From the NCBI GenBank assembly GCA_033722075.1, contig JAWVZU010000002.1, positions 3,266 to 67,265 on the forward strand: 64,000 nt of DNA. The letters are read 5' to 3'. The stretch's first letter is position 1; each line of letters starts with the position of its first letter. The stretch is from Lysobacterales bacterium. Lineage in GTDB: Bacteria; Pseudomonadota; Gammaproteobacteria; Xanthomonadales; SZUA-38. Below, one piece after another: positions 4,911 through 60,087 of the stretch. The notes beneath the pieces are model-generated. The model did not search any database and was not told the origin of the DNA. It saw only the letters and a program-made list of their open reading frames with translations. The translations under genes were made by a program, and so were the position numbers.

Positions 4911-7097
4911 TTGAATTGCAGAACCTCAAAGCTCGCAGCGCTGGCGCTGTTGCTTACGGCCTGCGGGAGCCTACCGGTGAGCGACGACGGCCCCGATCAA
5001 GCCACGCGGTCCGCTGCCGGGCCAACGGATCCGGCGGCCGCGGAGGTCGGGGCGGCTCAGCCCGAGAGCGACCCGGCGCCGACGACGGCCAGTCCCGAAC
5101 TTTACCCCGGCAGCGGTCGATTCATCGACTCGGATGCGGCCCAGCGGCCTGCGCTGGATGCGGTGGGAGAGGGGGAGATCATCTTCAATTTCGAAGGTGA
5201 GGCGCTCCAGGCCGTGGTCAAGGCGATCCTCGGCGACCTGTTGCAGGAGAACTACGTGATTTCGCCCGGGATCCAGGGCAACGTCACCTTCTCCACGGCC
5301 AAGCCGGTTCCCATGGACCAGGTGCTGCCTATCCTCGAAATGCTCCTGTCCTGGAACAATGCCGCCCTGGTCTATCGTGACGGCCGCTACCATGTCATGC
5401 CGATCCCGCGGGCCGTGCAGGGCCAGCTGCGCCCGGTCATGGGGCCGCTGGCCGATCAGCGTGGCTACGAGGTTCGCGCCTTTCCGCTGGACTTCATTGC
5501 GCCTGCCGAGATGGAAAAGCTGCTGCGGCCCTATGCCCGGGAGAATGCCTTCGTCAGCGTGGACAACGCGCGAGGCCTGCTGATCCTGGCCGGCACCCGG
5601 GACGAGCTCGAGAACTACCGTCAGACCATCGAGATCTTCGACGTCGATTGGCTGGAGGGTATGTCCGTCGGGGTCTATCCGCTGGAGCGGGTGGAGGCCG
5701 ACACGGTGGTCGGCGAGCTGGAGGCGGTCTTCGGTGAGGGTTCCGGTACGCCCCTGGCGGGCATGTTCCGCTTCATGGCCATCGAGCGGCTGAATGCAAT
5801 CATGGTGATCACGCCGCAGCCGGCCTACCTGGACAAGGCGGTCGAGTGGGTCAAGCGCCTCGATCGGGGCGGCAGCGAGGCAGGAACACGCCTCTATGTT
5901 TATGCCGTGCGCAACGTCAAGGCGACGGACCTGGCCGACACGCTTTCGGACATCTTCAGCGACTCCGGGCGATCGTCCAGCCGTGAGCAACGCCGCGGCT
6001 CGCTGCAGCTGGCTCCCGGCCTGGAAGCCGGCGAGATTTCCTCGATCAACGATCCGCGGCGCCGGCAGCAGCAGGAACAGACCGAGACGGCGGAGCGGCG
6101 ACCGGCGACCCGCGAAAGCGGGGGCGGCGGCATCGCTCTGGTCGACGGGGAAGAGGTACGCATCACCGCCGTGGAAGAATCCAACTCACTGCTGATCCGG
6201 GCCACGCCGGGGCAATACGATGCGGTACTCGGGGCCATCAAGCGCCTGGACATCGTGCCCCTGCAGGTACTGGTGGAGGTCCAGGTGCTCGAGGTCACGC
6301 TGAACGAAAACCTGAGATACGGCGTACAGTGGTTCTTCGAGAGTGCACTCAATGACTTCAGCTTTCCGGGCAGCGGATCCGGCAGCGGCGGCAAGGGCGT
6401 GTTCGACAGCGGCGGCTCGATCAGCGGTGATCGCTATGCCACCGTTTCCGGGGGCGGCGGGCTGAACTATGCGATCCAGGGTGGCGACGCCGCAGCGATC
6501 GTTTCCGCGCTGGAATCGGTGACGGATGTGCGGACGATCTCCGCGCCTTCCATGATGGTGTTGAACAACCGCGAAGCGAACATCAATGTCGGCACCCAGA
6601 TCCCGGTCAATTCCCCGATCTTCAATCTGGGCACCGGGACTGATGTCGGGCGCACCCAGGTGCAGTTCCGGGATACCGGCGTCACGCTCAACGTGGTCCC
6701 CCGGGTCAATCCCGGTGGGATGGTGTTCATGGAAGTGCAGCAGGAAGTCAGTGCGCCGATCGGGTCGGCCGATGCTCAGGGCAACGTGTCGCTTCGCCAG
6801 CGGCGGATCGACACGGAAGTGGCCGTCCAGAGTGACGAAACGGTGGTCCTCGGCGGCCTGATCCAGGCCGACTTCGAAGAAGACCGGAGCGGGCTGCCCT
6901 GGTTATCCCGGATGCCGTTGGTCGGCGGTCTGTTCGGAAACCAGGGACGAGACATCACGCGCACCGAGCTGATTGTGCTGATCACCCCGAAGGTGGTCGC
7001 CAGCATCGAGGAAGCTCGCGCCGTCAGCCGCGAATATCGTGAGCGGATGCGCACGCTGAAGCCCCTGGACTCGGAAAAAGTGGAAATCAATAACTAG
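4911..7097 (+). CDS. gspD: Type II secretion secretin GspD with a lipoprotein signal peptide
   Basis: TTG start preceded by AAGGAG. Lipobox LLLTAC/GS. A Pro/Ala-rich linker precedes the N0-like domain (IIFNFEGEALQAVVKAILGDLL). The C-terminal secretin core reads ISAPSMMVLNNREANINVG...VVLGGLI...IPWLSRMPLVGGLFG...TELIVLITPKVV. Confidence 0.95.
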   Translation: MNCRTSKLAALALLLTACGSLPVSDDGPDQATRSAAGPTDPAAAEVGAAQPESDPAPTTASPELYPGSGRFIDSDAAQRPALDAVGEGEIIFNFEGEALQAVVKAILGDLLQENYVISPGIQGNVTFSTAKPVPMDQVLPILEMLLSWNNAALVYRDGRYHVMPIPRAVQGQLRPVMGPLADQRGYEVRAFPLDFIAPAEMEKLLRPYARENAFVSVDNARGLLILAGTRDELENYRQTIEIFDVDWLEGMSVGVYPLERVEADTVVGELEAVFGEGSGTPLAGMFRFMAIERLNAIMVITPQPAYLDKAVEWVKRLDRGGSEAGTRLYVYAVRNVKATDLADTLSDIFSDSGRSSSREQRRGSLQLAPGLEAGEISSINDPRRRQQQEQTETAERRPATRESGGGGIALVDGEEVRITAVEESNSLLIRATPGQYDAVLGAIKRLDIVPLQVLVEVQVLEVTLNENLRYGVQWFFESALNDFSFPGSGSGSGGKGVFDSGGSISGDRYATVSGGGGLNYAIQGGDAAAIVSALESVTDVRTISAPSMMVLNNREANINVGTQIPVNSPIFNLGTGTDVGRTQVQFRDTGVTLNVVPRVNPGGMVFMEVQQEVSAPIGSADAQGNVSLRQRRIDTEVAVQSDETVVLGGLIQADFEEDRSGLPWLSRMPLVGGLFGNQGRDITRTELIVLITPKVVASIEEARAVSREYRERMRTLKPLDSEKVEINN

Positions 7098-7112
7098 AAC
7101 GGAGCGTACGGA

Positions 7113-7526
7113 ATGATGAGAGTGGTGTTGATTGCGCTGGCCGCGGCCATGCTGGCGGCGTGTGCCGGTCTGGGTCGACCGGTCAGCCTCGAGGAGCGGG
7201 CCCAGGCGCGCTGGGACGCGGTGATCAGCGGCGACTGGGAGCGTGCCTATGCGTACCTGTCCCCGGGAGCCAGGACCGCCATGTCGGAGAGCGCGTTCCG
7301 GGAGCTGATGACCAACCGCACGATCAACTGGACCGGCGCCGAGGTGGTGGAAATCGGAATGTGCGATACGGCGGTCGGCAGCTGCGACGTGATTGTCAAC
7401 GTCGGTTACCGGGTTTCCCGCGGCGTGCCGGGCCTGCGCAAGCCCATAGAACTCACCAAAGGAGTGACCGAAAGCTGGATCGAGGTAGACGGGGCTTGGT
7501 ATTTCGTTCCCGATCGTCTACGATAA
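7113..7526 (+). CDS. Small lipoprotein of unknown function (137 aa)
   Basis: Signal peptide with lipobox AMLAAC/AG. It starts 15 nt after gspD with no terminator between them. I recognise no catalytic motif. Confidence 0.7.
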   Translation: MMRVVLIALAAAMLAACAGLGRPVSLEERAQARWDAVISGDWERAYAYLSPGARTAMSESAFRELMTNRTINWTGAEVVEIGMCDTAVGSCDVIVNVGYRVSRGVPGLRKPIELTKGVTESWIEVDGAWYFVPDRLR

Positions 7527-7599
7527 CGGCACAAAAAGAGATCCAAGGGGGTCGGCGGAAGCCCTTTCCCAACGGCTTTTTCGCCAATCGTGTAAATCA

Positions 7600-7628
7600 T
7601 TGCGTTGTGGATTTCGTTTTTGTACCAT
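7600..7628 (+). promoter_or_regulatory. Candidate sigma70 promoter for the 7732 gene (-35 TTGCGT, 17-nt spacer, -10 TACCAT)
   Basis: It lies in a 205-nt intergenic stretch (7527-7731) that is AT-richer than its surroundings. The hexamers were spotted by eye only. A strong RBS (AGGAG) sits 7 nt before ATG 7732. Confidence 0.25.
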
Positions 7629-7731
7629 GTGGTCGCTCTTTTGTAGCGGAAAGCACTGGCTTAGGCGGGAAATAAGCGACTAAACGTGATTTCTGCCCGA
7701 GTGGCCCTGTGAATGTGTTAGGAGTGTTGTA

Positions 7732-9309
7732 ATGAAGAGAAAAACCTTAACGACTGCTGTGCTCGCTGGCATCGGTGGTGTGGCGGGTATCGCCAACATC
7801 TCCGGCGCCGTGAACCTGAACCCGGATGGTCTGGGCCAGGTTCTTATCTATCCTTTCTATACGGTTAATGGTGGCAACGACACGCTTGTGTCGGTTGTGA
7901 ACACCACTGCTGAAGTCAAGGCCGTCAAGGTCCGCTTCCTCGAGAGCAAGAACTCTCGCGAAGTGCTCGACTTCAACTTGTATCTGTCGCCGTTTGACGT
8001 CTGGGTCGGTGCCGCAACTTCTACCGGTGATACCGGTGCTGCGGTTCTGGTCGTGCCCGATGGCGAAGACAGCTGCACGGTTCCGGCCATCACCGGTCCG
8101 GTTCCGTTCACCAACCTGCTGCTGACCGAGCGGAATGCAGCCGGCTCCGCTTTCATCGACAACAGCATCGAGCGTACCCGTGAGGGCTACATCGAGATGA
8201 TCGAGATGGGCGTGGTCGAGGAAACCGCTGACGCCGTCAAGACGGGTCTGGAAGCGGCTGCTATCCACACCCCGCGCGGTACTGTTCCGGCTAACTGTGG
8301 CGCTCTTGTTGCCGCATGGTCCACCGGCGGTATCTGGCTGCAGGACGAAGACACCGACGTACTGGCGCCGACCGGCGGCCTGTTCGGTGGTGGTTCCGTG
8401 ATCAACGTATTCGGCGGCTACCAGGCCTCCTATACGGCTGACGCGATCGAGGGTTTCTACAACCCGATCAATGGTGACGCTTCCGTAACCGCTGCGGTTC
8501 GGAACACCCTTCACAGCCAGCCGGGTGACACCAACCCGACGCTGCTGCAGACGGACACCACCAACCTGACCGGCGATCCGTCGGTTGACCGTAGCTTCGT
8601 GTTCGATCGTGACCGCGTCGTGACCTCTGACTGGTCGCGTGCGGGCGTTCCGGATGCAGTCAGCGCGACCTTCATGCGCGACTTCATCTACAACGAGTAC
8701 GCAATCGAAACGGTTCTGTTGGGTGCGACCGAGTGGGTTGCCACCTTCCCGACCAAGCGTTTCTACGTTGACCCGGCAATTGCTGGCACCACGGCTATCA
8801 ACCCCTTCACCAACCAGTTTGGTGTGGTTGACGGCATCGGCGCCTGCGAATTCGTCGCTCTGGACTTCTTCGATCGCGAAGAAGACACCACCTTCGTTGT
8901 TGACGAGCCTGTGTTCTCGCCGGCTCCGGTCACCCTGCCGAACGTTCCGTTCCTGTGCTTCGAAGCCCAGGTCATTTCGTTCGGTGAGCCGGGTACCGGC
9001 TTCTTCGGCACCTCACCGTCGACTGTTCTGGGTTCCCCGAACTCGCAGAACATCCCGGTCGAGACCGAAGGCTTCGAGTCCGGTTGGGCTCAGATCGGCT
9101 TCGCGCCGGCTGACGTCGCACAAGGTCTCGGTGTGCGTCACACCATGACCTCGGACGACGGTGACGTCTACAACGGTCTGCCGGTTACCGGTTTCTCGGT
9201 TCAGGTGGTCCGTAATGGCACCATCACCGACGACGCTGGCAACAACGTGCTGTCCAACTACGCTGGCCTGTTCAATCACCGGTCCAGCCGGGACATCATC
9301 GGCAGCTAA
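7732..9309 (+). CDS. Secreted protein of unknown function (525 aa), probably highly expressed
   Basis: Sec signal peptide MKRKTLTTAVLAGIGGVAGIANISGA. Conserved-looking N-terminal block LNPDGLGQVLIYPFYTVNGGNDTLVSVVNTT..VKVRFLESKNSREVLDFNLYLSPFDVW. Codon choice differs from neighbouring genes (many GGT/GCT/GTT/CGT/ACC/TTC codons). It has its own leader and a perfect terminator. Confidence 0.85.
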   Translation: MKRKTLTTAVLAGIGGVAGIANISGAVNLNPDGLGQVLIYPFYTVNGGNDTLVSVVNTTAEVKAVKVRFLESKNSREVLDFNLYLSPFDVWVGAATSTGDTGAAVLVVPDGEDSCTVPAITGPVPFTNLLLTERNAAGSAFIDNSIERTREGYIEMIEMGVVEETADAVKTGLEAAAIHTPRGTVPANCGALVAAWSTGGIWLQDEDTDVLAPTGGLFGGGSVINVFGGYQASYTADAIEGFYNPINGDASVTAAVRNTLHSQPGDTNPTLLQTDTTNLTGDPSVDRSFVFDRDRVVTSDWSRAGVPDAVSATFMRDFIYNEYAIETVLLGATEWVATFPTKRFYVDPAIAGTTAINPFTNQFGVVDGIGACEFVALDFFDREEDTTFVVDEPVFSPAPVTLPNVPFLCFEAQVISFGEPGTGFFGTSPSTVLGSPNSQNIPVETEGFESGWAQIGFAPADVAQGLGVRHTMTSDDGDVYNGLPVTGFSVQVVRNGTITDDAGNNVLSNYAGLFNHRSSRDIIGS

Positions 9310-9336
9310 CAGCCGAGTCAACAGCTCTAGCTGTGG

Positions 9337-9366
9337 AAAGGGGCGCTCTGCGCCCCTTTTCTTATT
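9337..9366 (+). terminator. Rho-independent terminator of the 7732-9309 gene
   Basis: Perfect 10-bp stem AAAGGGGCGC / GCGCCCCTTT with loop TCT, followed by the T-rich tail TCTTATT. It begins 28 nt after the stop codon. Confidence 0.8.
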
Positions 9367-9514
9367 GGGGAAGCGGAACCTTTTCCCTATGATGGAATCG
9401 AAGCTGGCGCGGGTTGGTGGCAGGAATCTTCCGGGAGCCGACCCTAAATTAATTCTTAACACGTGAACTGCCAGCCTGATTTAGAATTGTTGCTCTCCAG
9501 ATTCGGAGTGGACG

Positions 9515-10546
9515 ATGAAAAAAGAACTACAGATCATGATTGCCGCCGCCGCGTTCACCGCGTCGGCAGGCGCCCAAAACAACCTGACCCTGAGCACGGA
9601 TGAAACCGTCACCACCGATGATTGCACAGTGATTCTCCGGTCGGGCGCCGCCGTGGAATTCACTACCGATGGTCTTACGGCCGAGGTGGAAGGTAATCCG
9701 GACGGATGCCTGGCAACAGGCCTGTCCGGTGGCGGTGCTGTGGCCCTTGACGCGGCGCCGTTTGACGAGGTCGAAGAAAATACGACCGTGACCCTGACCT
9801 GGGACGTTCCGGCGAACCACGACTGTACCCTGACCCGGAACGGCGCCACGTTTTTCAGCGATTCCCAGATCGACGCGAATACCTCCACGACCGATACGGT
9901 CAGTGGTGACGTGACTTACCGGATGAACTGCACCAACAGCAAGACTGACCCGCAGTTTGCGCCCGGAACGGAGTCCGCCTTTGCGACCGCGCTGGTCACC
10001 GTCTTGAACAGCGGCGGTGGCGGCGGCGGTGGTGTCGGCGAGTTCTGTGATGCGCAGCCCACCGGCCTCTCCCGGGTTGATCCGGTCGAGTTCCTCTCCA
10101 ACCGCCTCATCGAGGGCAGTTCCTCGACCTACGAGGGTATCTGGGGCCCCTGGGGCGATAGCTCGAGCACCATCTATGTCGAGATGAGCAACGGGCAATA
10201 TGCCTCGCTTCCGTTTGTCATCAGTAATACGCGATCGGACGATTTCGCGATCATGGTCTGGGACCAGATTTCCGAAAGCCCCGAGCAGGTGCGGGTCAGC
10301 GTCTCCACCTGTATCGGTGGTCCGCTCCAGGAAACCTCAGTTCCCCAATCCGGGAATAACTCCTGTTACTTCCAGGGCAGTGGGGTGTCCGGTGGCTTCA
10401 ACATGAAGGCGATCGAATCGACCAGCGGTTGCATCCTGCAAGCCGGTGTTCAGTACTTCTTCAATATCGCATTCGTGGACGCGAACGGTAACGCGGGCTG
10501 CACGCTTCCTGGAGGAAACTGCGCGTGGAACGTCAGCGAGAACTGA
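9515..10546 (+). CDS. Secreted Cys-rich two-domain protein of unknown function (343 aa)
   Basis: Signal peptide MKKELQIMIAAAAFTASAGA/QN with RBS GGAGTGG. The N-terminal beta-rich region and the Cys-rich C-terminal domain are joined by a G7 linker (SGGGGGGGVGE). Confidence 0.75.
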   Translation: MKKELQIMIAAAAFTASAGAQNNLTLSTDETVTTDDCTVILRSGAAVEFTTDGLTAEVEGNPDGCLATGLSGGGAVALDAAPFDEVEENTTVTLTWDVPANHDCTLTRNGATFFSDSQIDANTSTTDTVSGDVTYRMNCTNSKTDPQFAPGTESAFATALVTVLNSGGGGGGGVGEFCDAQPTGLSRVDPVEFLSNRLIEGSSSTYEGIWGPWGDSSSTIYVEMSNGQYASLPFVISNTRSDDFAIMVWDQISESPEQVRVSVSTCIGGPLQETSVPQSGNNSCYFQGSGVSGGFNMKAIESTSGCILQAGVQYFFNIAFVDANGNAGCTLPGGNCAWNVSEN

Positions 10547-12006
10547 TCGGCGCTGCGGCACGGCTCGCCGCATCCGCCATCACCCTGGGGTGCCTAGCAG
10601 CACCCCTTTTTGCGAGCGACCTCGGTCCCGGCGTGCTGGCCCGCCTGGGCCAGGCCGAAGTGACCCAGGCCGACGTCAACGCAGCCCTGCTCGATGTGCC
10701 GGCAGACAAGCGCGACGGCGTCATGAACAGCCCCGACCGGGTCGGCAACCTGCTCCAGACGATCCTCCTGCGACGCGCAATCGTGGCCGATGCGGACCGC
10801 TTCCTGTCCCGATCGGAGATGCGCAAGGCACGGGAGAGCGCACAGGAGGAAGCGCTGGCAACCCTCGCCCTGGAGATGATTCCGGTCGTCAACGACGAGC
10901 GCGCAATCGAACAACGGGCACGCCAGCTCTACGAACGAGAGGCGGCCGCCGCTGCCCGAACCGTTGTAAGCTTCGACCTGATTACCGTTCAGGCAGATGC
11001 GCATGGCTGGGACGGTGCGGAGCGAGTGGCTGCAGAGCAATACGCTGTGCTCCAGGCCGGTGACACGGTCGAAGAGAGCGAAGGAATTACCGTCCGACGC
11101 TTTCAGGACGTGGATCGAACCCAGATTGCCGACGAGTTTCGCGAGCGGATTAGCGACATGCAACCAGGCACTGTCAGCAAACCTTATCCGATGGTCGTAG
11201 GCTATCAGATCCTCGTCTACCGCGGTGCTGAAACACGCCCGCCACCTTCTTTCGAGGATACCCGCTCAACCTGGATGGCGCGTGCGCGGGACGACCTGGC
11301 CGCGGCAGGCCGGCGGGAATTGGCTCAACTGCACGACGAGGCTGGACTGGCAGACCTGGCGAAGGAAGCGGGCCTGGACAATGAGCCGACCGGTGCAGCA
11401 TACCTGCGCCAGGCCGAAGAGGAGGCCCTCCTGGCGGAACTCAAGAACGCGTATTTCGAAGAAGAACTGCAGGGGGACTATTCCGCGCTGGTGCGCGAAC
11501 GCTATGTCACGAGCCGGGCGCAGCATCGCACCCAGCCGCAGGCTGATATCGCGCTGGTGCGGGTTCGCGGTATGCCGGCCGTTGATCAAGGTGAGCTCCG
11601 GGAAAAGCTGGACTCGTACGTCCGCGAGCAGGGGCTCGGCGGATTCGATGAGCGGGTCAAGGCCCTCACCGGCGTGCCCGCAGTCATGGCGTCCTACCAG
11701 CGCCAGGTCCCCTTCAAGATTCTCCGGGATTCCACGGAATTCGCGCTGTACGAGATGCTCGAGCGGGATTGGGTCGCCCATGTTTCGGAGACCGATGGCA
11801 TCGTCAGTTTCGTCGCGATGGCAAACTACGTGCCGTCGCGCCAGAAGGAGTTCGCGGAGGTCGAGGAAGACCTCATGGCCTCCGTTAGCAAGGAGCTCCG
11901 AGAAGCCGCCTGGCGACGCTTTACCGATCCTTACTACAAGCTGGAGCTGGAAGCCGATCCGGAGGCAATTGCCGCCCTGAGAGTGCCCGGCATGGAAGGC
12001 GGCTAA
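10525..12006 (+). CDS. SurA/PpiD-like periplasmic chaperone with two degenerate parvulin-like domains
   Basis: GTG start overlaps the end of the previous gene by 22 nt. Signal peptide ...ITLGCLAAPLFA/SD. SurA-N-like helix bundle (GQAEVTQADVNAALLDVPADKRD...LLQTILLRRAIVADA). Parvulin-like ending PGTVSKPYPMVVGYQILVY. A second, weaker repeat lies in the C-terminal half. The start codon is uncertain. Confidence 0.7.
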   Translation: MERQRELIGAAARLAASAITLGCLAAPLFASDLGPGVLARLGQAEVTQADVNAALLDVPADKRDGVMNSPDRVGNLLQTILLRRAIVADADRFLSRSEMRKARESAQEEALATLALEMIPVVNDERAIEQRARQLYEREAAAAARTVVSFDLITVQADAHGWDGAERVAAEQYAVLQAGDTVEESEGITVRRFQDVDRTQIADEFRERISDMQPGTVSKPYPMVVGYQILVYRGAETRPPPSFEDTRSTWMARARDDLAAAGRRELAQLHDEAGLADLAKEAGLDNEPTGAAYLRQAEEEALLAELKNAYFEEELQGDYSALVRERYVTSRAQHRTQPQADIALVRVRGMPAVDQGELREKLDSYVREQGLGGFDERVKALTGVPAVMASYQRQVPFKILRDSTEFALYEMLERDWVAHVSETDGIVSFVAMANYVPSRQKEFAEVEEDLMASVSKELREAAWRRFTDPYYKLELEADPEAIAALRVPGMEGG

Positions 12007-12021
12007 ACGTCGGCGACCGTC

Positions 12022-12804
12022 ATGTTGCTGAGCCGGACCGAGGTTGCCGTATTCCGCCTTCTGCTCTGGCGGTACGCCCGCGAACGTTATCTCCAGAACT
12101 GGGCAGGCCCACTGTGGGTCATCCTGGTACCGCTGGCCCAGCTCGCAATCTACGCCTTCGTGTTCGTCGAGATCTTCAAGGCACGGGTCCCGGAGGCGGA
12201 CACGGTGGGTTTCGTGCCCTATCTGGCCGTTGCCTTCTGGCCGTGGACAGCGTTTGCCGATGCGGTGATGCGGGCGACGCCTTCGGTGGTCGAGAACCGG
12301 GACCTGATCGGCAAGGTGGCGCTCCCGGCGGAGGCGCTCCCTGCGGCCAGTGCTTCGGCAACATTTCTCCTGACCCTGGCCGGCTACGTGGCGGTGCTGA
12401 TCGTCCTAGCCGCGACGGGTACGCCTATTGGTCTGGTGGGGCTGCCCCTGATGCTGACCATGGTGCTTTGCACCTACTTTCTGGCCTTGGGCCTCTCCCT
12501 TCTCTTCAGCGCCCTGCAGGTCTACGCTCGCGACCTCAATCATGCGCTCGGTCCGCTGTTCATGCTGTGGTTCTTTACCACCCCGATTCTCTATTCCATT
12601 GACCTGATTCCCGAGCGTCTGCGTGGTCTCGCTCAGCTGAATCCGTTCTATTACATCGTCAGCCGCATTCGCGATGCGCTGCTTTTCGATGCTCCCCGTT
12701 TCCGCTTGGCAGATATCGCGTTCCTCGTCGCGAGTGCGCTTTTCATGCTGCTCTGCGTTGCCGTTTTTCGCCGTCTCTCGCGCCGCTTCGAAGACTACCT
12801 ATGA
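12022..12804 (+). CDS. wzm: ABC-2 type polysaccharide/O-antigen export permease
   Basis: 260 aa with about 6 TM segments. The ABC-2 N-terminus is typical (LLWRYARERYLQNWAGPLWVILVPLAQLAIYAFVF). ATGA overlap with the ATPase gene. Confidence 0.85.
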   Translation: MLLSRTEVAVFRLLLWRYARERYLQNWAGPLWVILVPLAQLAIYAFVFVEIFKARVPEADTVGFVPYLAVAFWPWTAFADAVMRATPSVVENRDLIGKVALPAEALPAASASATFLLTLAGYVAVLIVLAATGTPIGLVGLPLMLTMVLCTYFLALGLSLLFSALQVYARDLNHALGPLFMLWFFTTPILYSIDLIPERLRGLAQLNPFYYIVSRIRDALLFDAPRFRLADIAFLVASALFMLLCVAVFRRLSRRFEDYL

Positions 12805-13859
12805 CCGATTGCCTGATCCGTCTGCGAGGTGTCAGCAAGGCGTTTCCCGTTTCCGGAAGCCGCCTTGCGCGACGTGCCAAATCCTGGCGGACGGTTCTTC
12901 ACGGCATCGACCTGGAGCTGCACAAGGGCGAGTCACTCGCGGTGCTCGGGGAAAACGGTGCCGGGAAATCGACCCTGCTCAAGATTATTGCCGGGGTCGC
13001 CCGTGCGACCGCCGGGGAAGTCGCGGTTCAGGGGACCTTCGGCGCCCTGATCGAACTGGGGGCCGGCTTCCATCCGGAGCAGACCGGTCTGGAGAACCTG
13101 AAGGCGGGGGCGACCCTGATGGGTGTGCCGAGGGACGAAATCGGGGAGATTACGGAGCAGGCGATGGCCTTCTCCGGGCTGCGGGACCACGCCGACAAAC
13201 CCCTGAAGCATTACTCGTCGGGGATGGTCGTGCGCCTCGGCTTTGCGATGATTGCCTCCATTCGTCCGGATCTCCTGATCAGCGACGAAGTTCTGGCGGT
13301 CGGTGACGAATCCTTTCAGAAGAAGTGCATTGGCTGGCTCGAGTCCTACCTTGCCGGGGGTGGTACCTTGCTGCTGGTCTCGCACAACCTCTATCACGTA
13401 CAGAAACTCTGCGAACGCGCGGTCTGGTTACATGAGGGTACGATCCGATCGGCCGGGGACACCTTCGAAGTCGTCCAGGAATACCTGGCGTTTCACGAGG
13501 CCCGGCTCGGTCGGGCTTCAACCGCGGCAAACGACGCCGGTTTACCTGGGCTGGCTTTTGCGCCTGAAGGACGGACATCCTACAGCCAGGGAGAAACGGT
13601 CGCCCTGACGCTCGATGGTTCGCCGGAAGCCCCCCTGACATGCGCCCTGCGGCGGCTGAGCGGCGATCTGATCTGGGAACGATCCCTGCCTGTAGAGGCC
13701 GCCGAGTGCGAACTCCCGACCGCCGATCTGTTGCCCGGGCGCTATGTCGTCGAGATCAGCCGGCCGGGCGCAGCGGGCGGGGTGACCCGCCTGTTCCGGA
13801 TCACCGGAGCAAGCCGCGAGTTCGGATCCCTGCGCCTCCCCCACAGCTGGGTCCAGTGA
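12801..13859 (+). CDS. wzt: Polysaccharide export ABC ATPase with C-terminal extension (Wzt-like)
   Basis: Walker [13 protein letters not shown], signature YSSGMVVRLGFA and Walker B LLISDEVLAVGDE. About 110 extra C-terminal residues look like a beta-sandwich (GETVALTLDG...GRYVVEISRP). Confidence 0.9.
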   Translation: MTDCLIRLRGVSKAFPVSGSRLARRAKSWRTVLHGIDLELHKGESLAVLGENGAGKSTLLKIIAGVARATAGEVAVQGTFGALIELGAGFHPEQTGLENLKAGATLMGVPRDEIGEITEQAMAFSGLRDHADKPLKHYSSGMVVRLGFAMIASIRPDLLISDEVLAVGDESFQKKCIGWLESYLAGGGTLLLVSHNLYHVQKLCERAVWLHEGTIRSAGDTFEVVQEYLAFHEARLGRASTAANDAGLPGLAFAPEGRTSYSQGETVALTLDGSPEAPLTCALRRLSGDLIWERSLPVEAAECELPTADLLPGRYVVEISRPGAAGGVTRLFRITGASREFGSLRLPHSWVQ

Positions 13860-14683
13860 TGACCCTCGTTGCGATGCCCGTGTACAACGCCGCTGACGCG
13901 CTTGGCCGTTGCCTCCGCTCCCTGGAACAGCACTTGCCTCCCGAACAAGCCATCGTGATCTGCGATGACGCATCGACCGATGTACGGGTCGGCGAATTGC
14001 TGGATGGGTTCTGTGACCGATCGACACGAACCTTGCTGCGAAATCCCACCAACCGGGGATTCGTCGCGACGGCCAATCGCCTGCTGGATCAGGGGCGGGA
14101 CGATGTTGTCCTGCTCAACTCTGACACGCGGGTCACGCCGAACTGGCTTGCGGCACTGGAGCGCTGCGCCGCATCGGATCCGATGATCGGCACGATCACG
14201 CCGTTTTCCAATCACGCGGAGATCTGTTCCTTTCCCGACTTCTGCCGGCCAAACCCGGTTCCCGCCGATCCCGATGCGGTCGCCCGCGCGATCGCCCGGA
14301 TCGGTCGCCCGACCTATCCGCGGTTGCCGACGGCAGTGGGATTCTGCATGTGGGTCCGGCGTCGGCTGCTCGATGAGATCGGCGCTTTCGACGAGTCGGC
14401 CTTCGGCCGCGGCTACGGCGAGGAAAACGATTTCTGCATGCGAGCTTCCGCTGCGGGTTATCATCACGTCCTGTGTGACGATGCCTATGTTGTCCACGAG
14501 GGCGGCGCGTCCTTCGCCGAGACCGGCCTGAAACCCGGCCCGGAGACCATGGCGCGACTGCTGGCCAAACACCCGGATTACGAGACTCTGGTGCATCGAT
14601 TCATCGCAACCGATCCGATTGCCGCCCGACGGGCCGAGCTGTTGGCCGGCATGAATGCCTACGAGCGCGGCCAGTTGGCCTGA
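13859..14683 (+). CDS. Family 2 glycosyltransferase
   Basis: ATG 13859 overlaps the wzt stop. GT2 hallmarks are present: MPVYNAADALGRCLRSL, ICDDASTD, LLNSDTRV, GFCMWVRRRLLDEIGAFDE..GYGEENDFCMRA. The ORF-track start at 13640 was rejected. Confidence 0.85.
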   Translation: MTLVAMPVYNAADALGRCLRSLEQHLPPEQAIVICDDASTDVRVGELLDGFCDRSTRTLLRNPTNRGFVATANRLLDQGRDDVVLLNSDTRVTPNWLAALERCAASDPMIGTITPFSNHAEICSFPDFCRPNPVPADPDAVARAIARIGRPTYPRLPTAVGFCMWVRRRLLDEIGAFDESAFGRGYGEENDFCMRASAAGYHHVLCDDAYVVHEGGASFAETGLKPGPETMARLLAKHPDYETLVHRFIATDPIAARRAELLAGMNAYERGQLA

Positions 14684-14690
14684 TCCGGAC

Positions 14691-15581
14691 ATGGAATTCA
14701 CCGGTGAAAGGTTCCTGCCCGAGTGCCAGCGCGAGATCTGGTACGAGCATTTCCATCGCTATGTCTTCGCGCGTCACCTCGCCCGGAACCGCCGTGTCCT
14801 GGATCTGGCCTGCGGGGAGGGCTATGGCGCTTCCCTGTTGTCGGACGTCGCCCGGCAGGTCATAGCGGTCGATCGATCAGGGGAGGCAGTCGTGCATGCC
14901 CGGGGCGAGTACGGGAACGACCGCCTGGTGTTGGTCCAGGGGGACGCGTCAGCGATCCCGCTGGCCGACGCGAGCGTCGATCTGGTCGTATCCTTCGAGA
15001 CCCTGGAGCATCTCGAAGCCCAGACCGAAATGGTCGGTGAATTCGCCCGGGTACTCCGAAAAGACGGCCTGGTGTTGATTTCCAGCCCGGACAAACGCAC
15101 CTATAGTGACGAGCGGGACTATACCAACGAGTTTCACGTCCGGGAGCTGTACCTTGAAGAATTCAAGGCCCTGCTCGCGGAACACTTCCCGGCGGTGCGC
15201 TTGTTCGGCCAGAAGCTGGGCTTCCACTCGGTGATCTGGGATCCCGAATCGGCCCACGGCGGCAAGGTGACCGCCGAGGCCGTCGCCCGGGATGATGCCG
15301 AACCCGGCCCCTGGCAGCCATCACCGATGTACTGGATCGGCGTGTGCGCGGCCGCTCCGGGGGCGCTGGAACGGGCGGGCCTGACGGATCTGGCCCTGTT
15401 TGCCGATACCGAGGAATCGGTCTACGCGCATTACGAGCACGAGATCCGCAAGAACATGGCTGCCGGTGGGATCATCGCCGAGCGCGACCAGCGAATCGCC
15501 GAACTCGAAGCCCGTTTGGCGGATCGGGACCACAATATGCCGGGCTGGCTGCAACGACTTACAAGAAAAATACTGAAATAA
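14691..15581 (+). CDS. Class I SAM-dependent methyltransferase with C-terminal coiled-coil tail
   Basis: Motif I VLDLACGEGYG, then motifs DLVVSFETLEHL and GLVLISSPD. The C-terminal heptad-like segment reads IIAERDQRIAELEARLADRD. Confidence 0.85.
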   Translation: MEFTGERFLPECQREIWYEHFHRYVFARHLARNRRVLDLACGEGYGASLLSDVARQVIAVDRSGEAVVHARGEYGNDRLVLVQGDASAIPLADASVDLVVSFETLEHLEAQTEMVGEFARVLRKDGLVLISSPDKRTYSDERDYTNEFHVRELYLEEFKALLAEHFPAVRLFGQKLGFHSVIWDPESAHGGKVTAEAVARDDAEPGPWQPSPMYWIGVCAAAPGALERAGLTDLALFADTEESVYAHYEHEIRKNMAAGGIIAERDQRIAELEARLADRDHNMPGWLQRLTRKILK

Positions 15582-15585
15582 CGCC

Positions 15586-17388
15586 ATGGAATTCGATATC
15601 GACTTCGGTACCTTGAACCAAGCGCCCGAGCCCGAGGATGATGGGCCTCTCTGCGCCAGCATCGACGGGATGGTTGCTCAGCTTTCCGGCGAAGAATGCG
15701 TCTTCCAGGTGCGGGATTCGGATGCGGTGCATGTCATGACGCTGGACGTGCTCCAGGCGATGAACGCAATGCGGACGTTCCGACCGCTGAAGGAGCACAT
15801 CGATCGGATCGAGCAGCAGCTCCCGGACCTGAAAGGGCGCCGGGATGCCATCGGACGCGTGATCGAGGGTCTCATGGGTCGGGGACTGGTGGTGACCTCC
15901 GACTCGATTCTCGAGACCGCGACGTCGGGGGATGAACGCGCCGAGAGCCCAACGCCGATCGTGGTGCGGACGGCCGATCGCCCGGAGCAGCTGGCGAAGC
16001 TTCTCGAGAGCCTGAGCGACCTGGAGGAAGACATGCCCGTGGTGGTGATCGACGAATCCAGCGATTCGCAAGCCGGCGAGGCCAATGCGGACCACGTTGC
16101 CGGGCTCACCGACCGACCGGCGACCTGGCTCGGTCGGGAGTGGCGCGGTCGTTTTGCGGCAGAGCTTGCCTCGTCTGCAGGCGTCGACCAGGCGGAGCTG
16201 GCCGAACTGCTGGACGAGCCGGACACCGCGGCGTTCACCGGGGGACAGGTCTGGAACGCAGCGTTGCTCCTCACCGCCGGACAACGTCCGGTGCTGCTCG
16301 ACGACGACATGCGCTGGAACCTGCGCGAACCGGGTCAGGTCCGGCCGGTCGTGAGTTTCCGCCAGTCTGCCAGAACGCCGCTCTACTTCGCGCCCGGCGA
16401 CGAGGCCCTGGAGCCGGCCCTGAGCGCTGCAGGCCGGGACTGGTTCGCGGAACATCGCCGTCTCTGCGGCTCAGGGCTTGCTGCCCTCAAGGACCTGGAA
16501 GGATTCTCGATCGACCCCGACACGCTGCGCGGCCAGAGCTACCGTGCCCTGGACCGGCTGACCCGCGAGGCGCGGATCAAAAGCACCTGTTCCGGTTACT
16601 ACGGCGACGCGGCGATGGACACCCGATTGTGGTTCTATCTCGCGCCAAACCAGGCTTCCCTTTGGCGCGACAAGTCGGCCTATTTCGACATCATGGCCCA
16701 TCCTCACGTCGCCCAGGGGTTTGGACATGTGCAGCTGGGCGAACTGAGCCAATTCACGCCGACCATGGTCGACAACACGGAATTGCTGCCTCCCGTCGCT
16801 CCCCGGGGGCGTGGCGAGGATCTCATGTTCGGCGCGCTGGTCCGTTTCCTCTACCCTCATTCGGTGTGCGTCCACCTGCCGTCGCTGATCGAACACCGCC
16901 GCGTGCGGCCCCACGACGCCGAGAACCCGGATGCCTTCGTTCCCAATGCGTCACGGTTCTTCGCCGAGTTTGCGCTGGCCCATCAGGATGAATGCGACGC
17001 ATCGGCGCCGGCCGATCGCATGGCGCTCCTGGCCATGCGCTACCGGGATATCGCCAGCGCCAGCGACGCACGCCGGCAGACCATGTTGCGTGAGTTCCTC
17101 GGCTACATGCGTTCGCAGATCGTCCACCAGCTGCAGGCCCAGCTGACCGGGAGTTCCGGATCGCCGGACTTCTGGCAACAGGCGGTGCAGGACTGGATCG
17201 AAGCGAACGGACGGGCGCTGACCGAGTCCCGGCCGCCACGCTTGCGGGGCTGGTCCGGCGACCTGGATGCCGCGGGCTGCGCGAATGCCCTCCGCTCCGA
17301 TGCGCAGCGCCACGCGCGCTGGCTGGCGCTGTGGCCCCAGGTGTGGTCGGCGGCTCAAGGGCGCTTCGAGGAGCTGATTGGTTTGTGA
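15586..17388 (+). CDS. Hypothetical 600-aa protein with a GT-A-like central region
   Basis: The ORF is in an operon context. A GT-A-like strand (TPIVVRTADRPEQLAKLLESL...PVVVIDESSD), acidic motif VLLDDDM and GEDLMFGAL are present. The N-terminal region of about 130 aa and the C-terminal region of about 200 aa match nothing I recognise. Confidence 0.65.
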   Translation: MEFDIDFGTLNQAPEPEDDGPLCASIDGMVAQLSGEECVFQVRDSDAVHVMTLDVLQAMNAMRTFRPLKEHIDRIEQQLPDLKGRRDAIGRVIEGLMGRGLVVTSDSILETATSGDERAESPTPIVVRTADRPEQLAKLLESLSDLEEDMPVVVIDESSDSQAGEANADHVAGLTDRPATWLGREWRGRFAAELASSAGVDQAELAELLDEPDTAAFTGGQVWNAALLLTAGQRPVLLDDDMRWNLREPGQVRPVVSFRQSARTPLYFAPGDEALEPALSAAGRDWFAEHRRLCGSGLAALKDLEGFSIDPDTLRGQSYRALDRLTREARIKSTCSGYYGDAAMDTRLWFYLAPNQASLWRDKSAYFDIMAHPHVAQGFGHVQLGELSQFTPTMVDNTELLPPVAPRGRGEDLMFGALVRFLYPHSVCVHLPSLIEHRRVRPHDAENPDAFVPNASRFFAEFALAHQDECDASAPADRMALLAMRYRDIASASDARRQTMLREFLGYMRSQIVHQLQAQLTGSSGSPDFWQQAVQDWIEANGRALTESRPPRLRGWSGDLDAAGCANALRSDAQRHARWLALWPQVWSAAQGRFEELIGL

Positions 17389-18236
17389 CCGCCCGCACCG
17401 ACGCGGTGGTGGTCAATTTCAATGCCGGTGAATGGTTGGCCCGCTGCGCCTTGTCCCTGCTGAAGGAGCCGGCCGTGGCCGCGCTCACGGTGGTGGACAA
17501 CGGTTCAACGGATGCCAGCATGACCGGCTTGCCGGAAGACCCGCGCGTCGCGGTGATCTCCAATCCTGACAACCGGGGCTACGCCGCAGCGGCCAACCAG
17601 GGCGCCGGGGCGGGAAGCGGCGAGTTCCTTCTTTTTTCGAACCCGGACCTGGAGCTCGTCACCGGCTCCCTGGCTACGCTGCAGGAGCTTCTCGACGCCG
17701 ATCCCGAGGTCGGAATTGCCGGTGTACAGGTCGTGGGTCCCGGCGGTCAGGAGCAACGGGCGTGTCGTCGGCGGTCACCGACGCCGGGTCGTGCCCTGAT
17801 AACCATGCTGGGCCTCGAATGGCTGGGCCTGCCGGGCGTGAACCTCCGATCCAGCATGCCGAGCGTCCCGCAGCCCCTCGACGGGGTCTCCGGGGCGCTG
17901 CTGTTCGTCCGCCGCCGCTGCTTCGAGGCCCTGGGTGGATTTGACGAGGGCTATTTCCTGCATTGCGAGGACCTCGATCTGTTCGAGCGTGCGCGTGCGG
18001 CCGGCTGGAAGATCCTGTTCGTACCGCAGGTGACCGCCCGCCATGCGAAGGGCATCAGCCAGCGGGGGCGGCGGCTTGCCTCCGAGGCTGCCAAGCACCG
18101 CGGCATGGTCCGGTATTATCGGCGCTTTCATGCCGCTTCCTGGCCGCGAGGGCTGCGCTGGTTGTGGCCCGCGCTGGTCGGGGCCCGCTTTGCACTTTTC
18201 AGTCCATTCTGGTGGGCTGCGGACCGGTTGCGATGA
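17385..18236 (+). CDS. Family 2 glycosyltransferase (rhamnosyltransferase-like)
   Basis: GTG 17385 overlaps the upstream stop (GTGA). GT2 motifs are present: VVVNFNAGEWL, VVDNGSTDAS, NRGYAAAANQG, FSNPDLEL, GALLFVRRRCFEALGGFDEGYFLHCEDLDL. Confidence 0.85.
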   Translation: MTARTDAVVVNFNAGEWLARCALSLLKEPAVAALTVVDNGSTDASMTGLPEDPRVAVISNPDNRGYAAAANQGAGAGSGEFLLFSNPDLELVTGSLATLQELLDADPEVGIAGVQVVGPGGQEQRACRRRSPTPGRALITMLGLEWLGLPGVNLRSSMPSVPQPLDGVSGALLFVRRRCFEALGGFDEGYFLHCEDLDLFERARAAGWKILFVPQVTARHAKGISQRGRRLASEAAKHRGMVRYYRRFHAASWPRGLRWLWPALVGARFALFSPFWWAADRLR

Positions 18237-19111
18237 AACAGGTCATGGTCGTCGGCGGCACCAATCAGATTGCCGCCTATCTGATTCCCGAACTGCTGAA
18301 TCGCCGCTATCACGTCGAGGTCGTGTCCCGGGCTCCGCGGCCACCCTGGATTACGCCGAACGTTCGCCTGAGCTGGCAGTTGCACGACCTCGCCGCGTTC
18401 CCCTTGTCGGGGCCGGTCGAGCGGGCGGTCTACCTGGCGCCCCTGGGGCTGGTCGGCCAGCTGGAGACGGCCCTGGCGCCGGGCGGGCGGATCGTCTGTT
18501 TCAGTTCGACCAGTGTGGTCTCGAAGGCGGATTCGAGCAGTGCGGCAGAGCGCGCGCTGGCCGCCGAACTCGAGAGCGGGGAACGGGCAGTCCGGGATCT
18601 CTCACGGCTGCACGCCGGCGAATGGACCATTCTGCGCCCGACCCTGGTGTACGGCGCCGGGCTCGATCGGAACCTGACTCGCATCGCCGCCAGCCTGGAA
18701 AAGTGGCGCGTCTTTCCACTGCCGGGCTCCGGCAGCGGCCGGCGCCAGCCGGTTCACGCCCAGGACCTCGCACGGGCTGCCGCGGCCTCGCTGGAACGGC
18801 CGGAGGCCGTCGGAAAGACCTATACGCTGGTTGGGGGCACGACCTTGACCTATCGGGAGATGATCGAGCGGATCTTCCGCTCGCTGGGCCGATCTCCGCG
18901 AATCCTGCCGTTGCCGCCGGCGGTGCTCAGGCTCGCCGTCGCCGCCGCGCGACTGCTGCCCCGCTGGCGTGACATCACCCCGGCCATGCTGGATCGCATC
19001 AATCAGGACCTGGTGTTCGACTCGGGCCCCGCCCGCGCCGATCTCGACTATCAACCTCGCGAATTCAATCCCACCGGCGAGACCTGGCAGCGGCTGGACG
19101 ATCGTCGCTGA
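18233..19111 (+). CDS. NAD(P)-dependent epimerase/dehydratase family protein
   Basis: ATG 18233 overlaps the upstream stop (ATGA). Rossmann N-terminus VMVVGGTNQIAAYLIPELL. An SDR-like body follows (ILRPTLVYG, VHAQDLA). Confidence 0.8.
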   Translation: MKQVMVVGGTNQIAAYLIPELLNRRYHVEVVSRAPRPPWITPNVRLSWQLHDLAAFPLSGPVERAVYLAPLGLVGQLETALAPGGRIVCFSSTSVVSKADSSSAAERALAAELESGERAVRDLSRLHAGEWTILRPTLVYGAGLDRNLTRIAASLEKWRVFPLPGSGSGRRQPVHAQDLARAAAASLERPEAVGKTYTLVGGTTLTYREMIERIFRSLGRSPRILPLPPAVLRLAVAAARLLPRWRDITPAMLDRINQDLVFDSGPARADLDYQPREFNPTGETWQRLDDRR

Positions 19112-19135: not shown

Positions 19136-20809
19136 TCAGGCCTTGAGACGCTTGTACTTGATGCGGTGCGGGCGGTCGGCCTCGTCGCCCAGGCGCCGCT
19201 TGCGGTCGTTTTCGTAGTCCTCGTAGTTGCCCTCGAACCAGACCACTTCGCTGTCGCCTTCGAAGGCGATGATGTGGGTGGCAATCCGGTCCAGGAACCA
19301 GCGGTCGTGGGAGATCACCATCACGCAGCCGGGGAACTCGAGGATCGCCTCTTCCAGCGCCCGCAACGTTTCGACGTCCAGGTCGTTGGTCGGCTCGTCG
19401 AGCAGGAGGACGTTTCCCCCGCTGCGCAGTACCTTCGCCAGGTGGACCCGGTTGCGCTCGCCTCCGGACAGGTCCTTGACCTGCTTCTGCTGGTCCGCGC
19501 CCCTGAAGTTGAAGCGCCCGACGTAGGCCCGCGAGGGCGTCTGGTAATTGCCGACCTGGATGTGGTCCAGCCCGTCCGAGATTTCCTGCCAGACGCTGTT
19601 CGCTCCGTTCAGGGAATCCCGTGACTGGTCGACGTAGGCCAGTTCCACAGTGGGCCCGACCCGCAGGTTGCCGCCGTCCGGCTCTTCCTTGCCGGCGATG
19701 AGCGAGAACAGCGTGCTCTTGCCCGCCCCGTTGGGGCCGATGATGCCGACGATGGCGCCGCGCGGGACCTTGAAGGAGAAGTCCTCATACAACAGCTTGT
19801 CACCGAACGCCTTGGTGAGCCCTTCGGCCTCGATGACCAGGTCACCGAGACGGGGGCCGGGTGGGATGTAGATTTCCCGGGTCTCGTTGCGGGCCTGGTG
19901 TTCCTGGGAGCTCAGTTCCTCGAAGCGGGTCAGTCGCGCCTTGCTCTTGGCCCGGCGTCCCTTGGGGTTGGCGCGCACCCATTCGAGCTCCTGCTCGATG
20001 GTCTTGCGGCGAGCCTTGTTCTGGGCCTCTTCCTGCTGCAGGCGCTGTTCCTTCTGCTCCAGCCAGGAGGAGTAGTTGCCCTTCCAGGGAATGCCGTGTC
20101 CCCGGTCCAGCTCGAGGATCCACTCCGCGGCGTTGTCCAGGAAATAGCGATCGTGCGTGACGGCGACGACGGTGCCCGGGTATTCCAGCAGGAACCGCTC
20201 CAGCCAGGCCACGGACTCAGCGTCCAGGTGGTTGGTCGGCTCGTCCAGCAGCAGCATGTCGGGTTTCGCCAGCAGGAGACGGCACAGGGCCACCCGGCGC
20301 CGCTCGCCGCCGGACAGCTGTTCGACGGGCTGCTCCCAGGGCGGGAGGCGCAGGGCATCGGCGGCGATATCGAGGGTCCGGTCCAGTTCCCAGCCGTTGG
20401 CCGCATCGATCGCGTCCTGGAGTCGCCCCTGCTCCTCGAGCAGTGCATTCATCGCCTCGTCATCCATGGGCTCGGCGAACCGGGCGCTGATCTCGTCGAA
20501 GCGGTTCAGCAGATCCTTGATCTCGGCGACCCCCTGTTCCACGTTTTCTCGCACCGTGGTGCCCTCGGTCAGCTGCGGCTCCTGGGGCAGGAAGCCGATC
20601 CGGATGCCGGGCTGGGGACGGGCCTCGCCGTTGTAGGACTGATCCTCGCCGGCCATGATCCGGAGCAGGGTGGATTTGCCCGACCCGTTGAGACCCAGAA
20701 CGCCGATCTTGGCGCCCGGGAAGAACGACAGGGAAATGTCCTTGATGATCTCGCGGTTGGGCGGCACCGTCTTGCTGACGCCCAGCATGGTGTAGATATA
20801 TTGCGCCAT
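19136..20809 (-). CDS. ettA: Energy-dependent translational throttle ABC-F protein EttA
   Basis: [54 protein letters not shown] at the N-terminus. Two ABC cassettes and a C-terminal ...[12 protein letters not shown]. The start was set at the conserved MAQ, 18 nt inside the ORF-track start. Confidence 0.95.
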
Positions 20810-20930
20810 GGATCTCGGATTCTGCACGAAGGGGCGCGCATTATCGTCGATCTATCGCCGATCGCAAACCCGCGCCCTGCGACCGGACATCCATTACAAT
20901 AGTGGTTTCACTGCAGCAACAGGATGTCCC

Positions 20931-31714: not shown

Positions 31715-31721
31715 TCACACC

Positions 31722-60086: not shown

Positions 60087-60087
60087 A

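Follow-up and report, generated by a model that had tools for sequence, protein, structure and literature searches.

A putative NpdA-type S-layer island with type II secretion and ABC-dependent glycan genes in a Lysobacterales genome

How could the genes of a type II secretion system (T2SS), of secreted proteins and of a glycan exporter come to follow one another on one strand of a bacterial genome? The question is raised by a 64,000-nt stretch of DNA from Lysobacterales bacterium (assembly GCA_033722075.1, contig JAWVZU010000002.1), the whole of which is termed the window here and to which all the positions below refer. The sequence-only reading of this DNA had offered two answers, that is, an O-antigen or exopolysaccharide (EPS) locus that happens to sit beside the T2SS, or a combined surface-layer (S-layer) and glycan module. 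The latter is supported by a gene order shared by 80 species-level loci and by two loci from Betaproteobacteria. We propose, with moderate confidence, that the block is an NpdA-type S-layer biogenesis island, in which the T2SS would export the S-layer protein NpdA, while a probably methyl-capped glycan, exported by an ATP-binding cassette (ABC) transporter, would anchor the lattice.

The NpdA-family protein

The gene at 7732-9309 (+ strand) encodes a protein of 525 amino acids (aa), whose BLASTP alignment with the NpdA protein of Paracidovorax citrulli (WP_011797163) extends over ~490 aa with 29% identity and an E-value of 8e-31. Motifs common to the two proteins can be recognized by eye, such as PYF/YT..NG, VKVRF and DF.(L/V)(Y/F).SP.DVW, and further TREGY.E, FDREE and FSP. 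By this homology the 525-aa protein is a member of the NpdA S-layer protein family, and its gene is termed npdA here. Its N-terminus reads MKRKTLTTAVLAGIGGVAGIANISGA/VNL, with a signal peptide of ~25 aa, and its composition is acidic (62 D+E vs. 26 K+R). Searches of Pfam, NCBIfam and PDB sequences, including a profile search, gave no match for it.

NpdA ("nanopod protein A") forms the S-layer of Delftia acidovorans Cs1-4, whose npdA mutant loses this layer (Shetty 2011, PMC3110197), and also that of P. citrulli AAC00-1, as established by deletion, proteomics and cryo-electron microscopy (cryo-EM) (Gajbhiye 2023, PMC10765051). The latter study listed NpdA orthologs in 62 beta- and 49 gammaproteobacterial species, and cryo-EM displayed S-layers in 15 of 16 further npdA-carrying cultures, with Rudaea cellulosilytica (Xanthomonadales) among the imaged set (PMC10765051). 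The listed carriers include Nitrincola alkalilacustris, Wenzhouxiangella, Chiayiivirga, Rudaea and Lysobacter sp. (PMC10765051), all of which recur among the loci retrieved by our profile scan. The surface-layer guess made from the letters of the window is therefore upheld, since the 525-aa protein is homologous to a protein experimentally shown to form S-layers; the label "unknown proteins", which had been given to the secreted products of this region, holds only in part, as the main one of them is a member of a published family. The NpdA clusters of Delftia and P. citrulli resemble the window in the ~50-kDa mature protein, the ~25-aa signal peptide and the lack of a Pfam domain, as well as in the order of the gsp genes, which ends in gspD and is followed by a small hypothetical open reading frame (ORF) and then npdA. 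One difference lies in the sequence, of which the window copy shares only 29% identity with the verified proteins.

More than 3580 homologs of the 525-aa protein were found, nearly all of them unnamed, and a profile search with the NpdA family collected 4402 clusters at 50% identity. Some members of the family (P0244, P0245, P0247-P0250 etc.) are ~930-975 aa long and are matched twice by the profile, so that they look like tandem "double NpdA" proteins, and one protein reaches 1647 aa.

The flanks of npdA are consistent with a structural gene. A promoter-like block precedes it at 7600-7628 (+ strand), with the -35 element TTGCGT (7600-7605), a spacer of 17 nt and the -10 element TACCAT (7623-7628), followed by a leader of ~100 nt and a GGAG Shine-Dalgarno sequence; transcription is predicted to start near 7635. 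When 7527-7731 is aligned with eight other loci, the invariant blocks ATTGC...TACCAT...CTCTT...CCTGT...GGAGTGTTGT appear, and the NpdA proteins of these loci are only ~51-55% identical to that of the window. We infer from these blocks a sigma-70-like promoter with a conserved leader of ~100 nt. A sigma-54-like element, TGGC-N7-TTGC, was considered as well; it fits the relatives and is degenerate in the window, so it was not adopted. Downstream of npdA, an intrinsic terminator with a GC-rich hairpin and a U-tract is located at 9335-9366 (+ strand), with a fold energy of -26.3 kcal/mol (z -3.6), and none of 200 shuffled sequences folds as well. Note that the evidence for both elements is alignment conservation and folding, in place of a generic sigma-70 scan, which called no promoter upstream of npdA and also missed the terminator at 9335-9366. 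An own promoter-like block and a strong terminator fit a separately, highly expressed structural gene.

Could the 525-aa protein instead be a common soluble cargo of the T2SS, for example an enzyme or an adhesin, and form no lattice in this organism? We regard this as very improbable. Its homology to two S-layer proteins that have been verified by experiment covers the full length, the Pfam, NCBIfam and PDB searches revealed no catalytic domain, and its acidic composition, promoter-like block and strong terminator are typical of abundant structural proteins. The cryo-EM survey bears on both sides, with layers in 15/16 ortholog-carrying cultures, the imaged R. cellulosilytica included, and one culture of the 16 without a visible S-layer (PMC10765051). 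On the side of a soluble substrate also stand the source, which is known as a metagenome-assembled genome (MAG) only, and the fold search, which gives only lectin-like hints. The AlphaFold2 (AF2) model is confident overall (pTM 0.83), and Foldseek found no PDB match at E <= 1e-3 and a weak resemblance to galectin-like beta-sandwiches, with a best E-value of 4.7e-3.

Gene order in the window and across genomes

All plausible genes from gspH to an epimerase-like gene (16-19111) lie on the + strand, according to the ORF listing and the domain scans. Overlaps of 1-4 nt are found at gspH/I, I/J, J/K, K/L, L/M, M/N, wzm/wzt and wzt/GT2, where GT2 denotes a family 2 glycosyltransferase (GT), as well as at p600/GT2, where p600 denotes the gene of a 600-aa protein, and at GT2/epimerase; the remaining short junctions are gaps of 4-56 nt. 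The ORF of a peptidyl-prolyl isomerase (PPIase)-like protein, with a GTG start at 10525, shares 22 nt with the preceding gene of a 343-aa protein. The overlapping stop/start junctions suggest translational coupling of most neighbours. Only two spacers are long, 7527-7731 and 9310-9514, each of 205 bp. The one-strand block with short or overlapping junctions, and the gaps before 7732 and 9515 as its sole exceptions, had been recognized correctly at the outset; the order then given for the genes after wzt was wrong, the actual one being GT2, methyltransferase, 600-aa protein, GT2 and epimerase-like gene.

Does the region between the T2SS and the glycan genes (7113-12006) travel with the former or with the latter? 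In a first look, three distant contigs with NpdA identities of 45-55% were found to carry the complete order from the T2SS (E...D) to the second GT2. The subsequent survey was based on one genome per GTDB species, where at least 570 species have an NpdA relative, and the best 80 loci, mostly from the order Lysobacterales and with NpdA proteins 40-55% identical to that of the window, were kept. Linkage was counted by tblastn with the window proteins in 10-kb flanks, which reach as far as the module boundary, and the denominators below are the loci with enough flank. The conserved order is T2SS, lipoprotein, npdA, (Cys-rich protein), parvulin PPIase, wzm, wzt, GT2, methyltransferase and GTs. Upstream of npdA and on the same strand, gspH is present in 64/65 loci, gspD in 72/73 and the lipoprotein gene in 76/77. 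The downstream core is likewise on the same strand and collinear, with wzm in 63/67 loci, wzt in 64/67, the first GT2 in 62/66 and the methyltransferase in 53/65, and the interval between npdA and wzm nearly always consists of two ORFs, the Cys-rich protein and then the parvulin PPIase (55/58). Among the distal genes, the second GT2 occurs in 54/63 loci, the 600-aa protein in 44/65 and the epimerase in 13/58.

The linkage is not confined to Lysobacterales. In the Betaproteobacteria P. citrulli and Acidovorax sp. 56, the T2SS, a hypothetical protein of 139-140 aa, NpdA, PPIase, Wzm, Wzt with a Wzt_C domain, methyltransferases and GTs follow one another, and the flanks of these two loci differ from the gammaproteobacterial ones. 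The core is also found in Oceanospirillales (Nitrincola, L024/L082) and Marinicellaceae. The homology to NpdA and the domain identities are established, as is a gene order common to gamma- and betaproteobacteria, and the region travels with both the T2SS and the glycan locus in the 80 species-level loci and the two betaproteobacterial ones.

Nevertheless, could an ordinary O-antigen or EPS locus have lain ancestrally beside the T2SS-npdA genes and been kept there by vertical descent, without a functional tie? The dominance of a single order among the 80 loci is what such an inherited adjacency would produce, and a housekeeping ABC-F gene, which borders the module downstream at 19136-20827 (- strand), is likewise syntenic in at least nine loci (L004, L022, L023, L027, L042, L051, L057, L077 and L083). 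However, the PPIase-wzm-wzt-methyltransferase core stays next to npdA in Betaproteobacteria despite their different flanks, and it is kept in Oceanospirillales and Marinicellaceae as well. NpdA identities of only 29-45% across these groups also suggest a divergence at which neutral gene order would usually have decayed. The variation of the distal genes, that is, the 600-aa protein and the epimerase, is typical of O-antigen loci, and NpdA is present but the glycan genes are lacking in a few genomes, both of which speak for inheritance; the same three-way linkage in the presumably independent S-layer family of Aeromonas, described below, speaks against it. Taken together, we consider inherited adjacency unlikely as a full explanation of the locus.

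The glycan genes and a proposed anchoring of the lattice

Downstream of the PPIase-like ORF, and all on the + strand, wzm (12022-12804) encodes an ABC-2 permease (ABC2_membrane PF01061, 57.6 bits), and wzt (12801-13859) encodes the ATPase (ABC_tran PF00005, 69.2 bits), which ends in a short domain apparently related to Wzt_C. Pfam Wzt_C gives no match in the Wzt protein of the window, whereas orthologous Wzt proteins carry this domain, and an hhalign comparison of the C-terminus with those of the Wzt_C-bearing orthologs gave a probability of 98.3% and an E-value of 2.4e-14. The first GT2 gene (13859-14683; PF00535, E 8.7e-13) has an ATG overlapping the wzt stop codon. It is followed by a class-I S-adenosylmethionine (SAM)-dependent methyltransferase with a C-terminal coiled-coil-like tail (14655-15581; Methyltransf_11, 76.6 bits), which is a candidate for the enzyme adding a chain-terminating cap. 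The next gene (15586-17388) encodes the 600-aa protein, which is soluble and acidic, has no transmembrane segment and could be assigned to no family; the second GT2 (17385-18236; PF00535, E 3.3e-15) and an NAD-dependent epimerase/dehydratase-like protein (18233-19111; PF01370, E 2.6e-11), the variable end of the module, come last. Three glycosyltransferase-type genes had been counted here from the letters. Only two are demonstrable, because the 600-aa protein has no Pfam or NCBIfam match even at E <= 10, nor any PDB match, and its GT-A-like motifs, VVVIDESSD and LLDDDM, were recognized by eye only.

In E. coli O8/O9a-type pathways, chains of defined length are ended by a cap that Wzt binds. 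The glycan pathway of the window looks like this cap-recognition type of ABC-dependent pathway, as far as its gene content can tell. Like E. coli O8/O9a (WbdA/WbdD), it combines Wzm, a Wzt with an extra C-terminal domain, a possible capping SAM methyltransferase and cytoplasmic GT2s. It differs in that Wzt has a shortened C-terminal domain that stays under the Pfam threshold, a small methyltransferase of one domain takes the place of a WbdD-like kinase/methyltransferase ruler, and neither an initiating enzyme nor a ligase was found among the ORFs of the window that were scanned.

What would such a glycan do beside an S-layer gene? The self-assembly of Delftia NpdA requires lipopolysaccharide (LPS), according to work of Engelhardt as cited in PMC3110197. 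In Aeromonas salmonicida, the ABC-2 O-antigen cluster has the sps T2SS genes and vapA, the S-layer gene, inserted between its wzm and wzt, and LPS serves as the tether of the A-layer (PMC4483657). The A-layer locus thus resembles the window in bringing together a T2SS, the gene of a ~50-kDa S-layer protein and an ABC-dependent glycan cluster. The S-layer genes of Aeromonas are placed between wzm and wzt, while both of these lie downstream of npdA in the window, and descriptions of the Aeromonas locus include no parvulin, NTF2-like lipoprotein or Cys-rich protein. It should be noted that the likeness is one of locus organisation only, and that the authors of the NpdA work call NpdA a new family. 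The RsaA layer of Caulobacter crescentus has its anchor, as proposed here for NpdA, in a dedicated O-antigen of uniform length, to which it binds non-covalently; unlike the window, Caulobacter uses type I export and an unrelated protein, and its glycan genes are arranged otherwise.

Alternatively, the locus could make an S-layer glycoprotein, where the glycan exported by Wzm/Wzt is moved en bloc in the periplasm onto NpdA and/or the Cys-rich protein, and decorates the lattice instead of anchoring it. Such a system would resemble the slg clusters of Geobacillus and Paenibacillus or the O-glycosylation of proteins in Gram-negative bacteria. The wzm, wzt, GT and methyltransferase genes of the module are also the ingredients of ABC-dependent clusters for S-layer glycans, and their linkage to the structural gene is tight and conserved. 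As in the window, the slg clusters of Geobacillus stearothermophilus and Paenibacillus alvei place ABC-dependent glycan genes beside an S-layer gene, and the slg chain end is methylated; unlike the window, they encode a polytopic oligosaccharyltransferase (WsaB-type) and belong to a Gram-positive envelope. In the module, Wzm is the sole protein with multiple transmembrane segments, and no Wzy_C/PglL-type oligosaccharyltransferase domain was detected in its ORFs, nor in the scan of 20 other window ORFs with a length of 200 aa or more, which argues against en bloc glycosylation of a protein and in favour of a ligation to lipid A-core that depends on genes elsewhere. NpdA runs anomalously on SDS-PAGE, with oligomers of 150 kDa or more (PMC10765051, PMC3110197), which leaves room for a modification, but the published NpdA work reports dependence on LPS and not glycosylation, and the closest precedent, Aeromonas, uses its glycan as an O-antigen tether. 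Decoration is accordingly rated as improbable. Anchoring is favoured by the reported need for LPS, the Aeromonas precedent and the absence of an oligosaccharyltransferase-like membrane protein from the module.

The S-layer island that we propose, with an anchoring glycan, would work as follows. The lattice protein would be produced from npdA under its own promoter-like block and strong terminator, carried over the inner membrane by the Sec system via the ~25-aa signal peptide, and folded in the periplasm, probably with the aid of the adjacent parvulin-type chaperone. The Xps-type T2SS encoded just upstream would then move it through the outer membrane. In the cytoplasm, the products of wzm/wzt, the two GT2 genes, the 600-aa protein gene and the methyltransferase gene would provide an undecaprenyl-linked polysaccharide, probably with a methyl cap, which would be recognized by the C-terminal domain of Wzt before the chain is exported. 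The polysaccharide would most likely be ligated to lipid A-core by genes elsewhere, and the resulting LPS-type glycan of defined length would anchor the NpdA lattice and support its assembly. The NTF2-like lipoprotein and the Cys-rich secreted protein may serve as accessory parts.

Several observations weigh against this proposal. No WecA-type initiating enzyme and no WaaL ligase was found in the module or in the same 20 other ORFs of the window; a Glycos_transf_4 gene follows the P. citrulli cluster. Both the C-terminus of Wzt and the PPIase domain of the window are below the Pfam thresholds, and the galectin-like similarity of the NpdA model is only weak, so that no glycan-binding site is demonstrated by it. 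Among the loci, L060 has the T2SS and NpdA (10001-11569) followed by metabolic genes with no wzm/wzt, and L045, from a Rhodanobacteraceae MAG, has an NpdA homolog (10001-11671) with neither T2SS nor glycan neighbours, L044 being similar. Part of the conserved order in Lysobacterales may be plain vertical inheritance, because the bordering ABC-F gene is syntenic too. Besides, the organism is known only from a MAG, and the T2SS could be either dedicated to NpdA or the general Xps system of the cell. Finally, gspL (2409-3521, + strand), which encodes a GspL-like assembly platform protein of the PilN-domain type, is interrupted, on translation and ortholog alignment, by an in-frame TAG (3102-3104) halfway through a predicted transmembrane helix (...LFVILL*GVLWQS...). 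This stop codon, if real, would disable the T2SS. The orthologs have Y/L/F/A at the site and the closest one has Tyr, therefore the difference is one of a single base; since the source appears to be a MAG, the stop codon is as likely to stem from an assembly error or from variation in the population as from a true inactivation.

Near the NpdA homolog of L045 lie genes for a response regulator, a GlmU-like protein and an Omp85 protein of the TamA-like kind.

How much of this is new? The NpdA S-layer protein and its adjacent T2SS are already known: the upstream cluster of 12 gsp genes and the hypothetical ORF "X" were described as conserved with npdA, and the cluster was compared with Aeromonas vapA and Pseudoalteromonas slr4 (PMC10765051). 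The NpdA papers considered here cover the upstream T2SS only, and the parvulin, wzm/wzt, the methyltransferase, the GTs and the gammaproteobacteria-specific Cys-rich protein are not mentioned in them. The downstream linkage to PPIase and glycan genes is not described in PMC10765051, because isomerase, polysaccharide, LPS, methyltransferase and glycosyl do not occur in its text, and our literature searches found no specific published link of NpdA with a glycan or of S-layers with a PPIase; a paper on wzt of Acidovorax oryzae deals with a strain-specific cluster. The addition is a modest one, with Aeromonas as its analogue, consisting of the downstream linkage to the parvulin gene and the apparently cap-type Wzm/Wzt glycan genes, and of the NTF2-like lipoprotein. 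For the window alone, this amounts to a correct annotation and not a discovery.

The wider meaning lies in the family. A published S-layer function can be assigned to proteins mostly labelled "hypothetical", in ~4400 clusters at 50% identity, and the S-layer gene travels not only with its T2SS but also with the gene of a putative parvulin chaperone and with an ABC locus for glycan export, apparently of the cap type. A concrete list of parts for the folding, export and anchoring of Gram-negative S-layers is thereby available, with P. citrulli, Delftia and Rudaea as tractable carriers. Tentatively, in a generalisation that may fail slightly more easily than it holds, the NpdA S-layers of Beta- and Gammaproteobacteria would depend on fixed, hitherto undescribed parts encoded beside npdA, namely a dedicated parvulin, the NTF2-like lipoprotein and a methyl-capped "S-layer LPS" anchor. 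If so, the island would be a self-contained, transferable S-layer cassette, and the Aeromonas arrangement would be generalised to thousands of environmental lineages, where the range of NpdA carriers includes nitrifiers, sulfur oxidisers and plant pathogens.

Secretion genes, accessory proteins and surroundings

The T2SS genes occupy the upstream end of the window on the + strand. They begin with gspH (16-420), encoding a minor pseudopilin (Pfam GspH, E 1.4e-8), whose 5' end is possibly cut by the window edge, and continue with the pseudopilin genes gspI (420-851; N_methyl motif, collinear in 64/65 loci), gspJ (848-1540; N_methyl motif, 63/65) and gspK (1537-2409; T2SSK_1st, E 1.5e-19, 65/66). 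After gspL, discussed above, gspM (3521-4126) starts with an ATG overlapping the gspL stop codon and is of the XpsM type (NCBIfam NF040576, 144 bits vs. the cut-off of 60). The following gspN/C-like gene (4123-4854) has a weak match to XpsN (NF041470, E 1.2e-11, below the cut-off), and PF28060 XpsN is detected in the orthologs of its product. The secretin gene gspD (4911-7097) is identified by its Secretin, Secretin_N and N0 domains and by TIGR02517 (479.8 bits vs. 351). The genes gspE/F/G presumably lie beyond the upstream edge of the window, as they are carried by the orthologs of this locus in L001, L003, L004, L086 and L087.

Between gspD and npdA, the gene at 7113-7526 (+ strand) encodes an outer-membrane-type lipoprotein of 137 aa with the lipobox LAAC and Cys17, which has counterparts in the betaproteobacterial loci too and corresponds to ORF "X" in the NpdA paper. 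C17, C84 and C91 are invariant in the alignment. Its AF2 model, built on an alignment of three sequences (three proteins from a word-indexed homolog search), has a pLDDT of 82, and the Foldseek matches are NTF2-like, with a best E-value of 1.8e-5. A T2SS pilotin (GspS/PulS or AspS type) was considered for this protein, for which the lipobox and the position beside the secretin gene do fit; it was rejected, the AF2 fold being NTF2-like only.

The gene at 9515-10546 (+ strand) encodes the Cys-rich protein, an acidic secreted protein of 343 aa with 10 Cys, recognized by its slot and by alignment. The family is very divergent, with eight near-invariant Cys in the alignment, and it occupies the npdA-wzm slot in the gammaproteobacterial loci; the gene is absent from both betaproteobacterial loci. 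The 343-aa protein has no Pfam match, and its resemblance to PKD/Ig-like domains is weak (E ~0.01). Profile searches against PDB sequences with the lipoprotein, the 600-aa protein and the Cys-rich protein gave no significant match.

The next ORF (10525-12006, + strand) encodes a periplasmic parvulin-type PPIase/chaperone-like protein of 493 aa with an N-terminal signal or anchor. It had been called a PPIase-like chaperone from the letters. In the window itself the Rotamase_2 match, which would place it with the SurA/PpiD/PrsA-like parvulins, is sub-threshold (21.5 bits vs. the Pfam cut-off of 27), and the name gains its support from the positional orthologs, which have Rotamase matches in 55/58 loci (best E 4e-25) and in P. 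citrulli too. A scan also matched a terminator-like GC hairpin with a T-run at 10587-10611 (+ strand; -17.8 kcal/mol, z -2.8), located 40 nt past the stop codon of the Cys-rich gene and within the first 30 (signal-peptide) codons of the PPIase ORF. It may act as a partial terminator that throttles read-through and lowers downstream expression.

Beyond the ABC-F gene, the other content of the window is housekeeping, such as glyA, rib genes, nusB, the dcw cluster, secA and pilBC. An ATPase/platform pair at 58866-61818 (- strand) was considered as a second T2SS and ruled out, as it is the PilB and PilC pair of a type IV pilus (TIGR02538, 859 bits); a UDP-GlcNAc 2-epimerase gene follows it at 61923-63101. 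In addition, a sulfotransferase-family gene (31650-32846) and a sulfatase gene (34846-36162), both on the + strand, flank a 499-aa ORF without a Pfam match, and this group (31650-36162) sits among the housekeeping genes.

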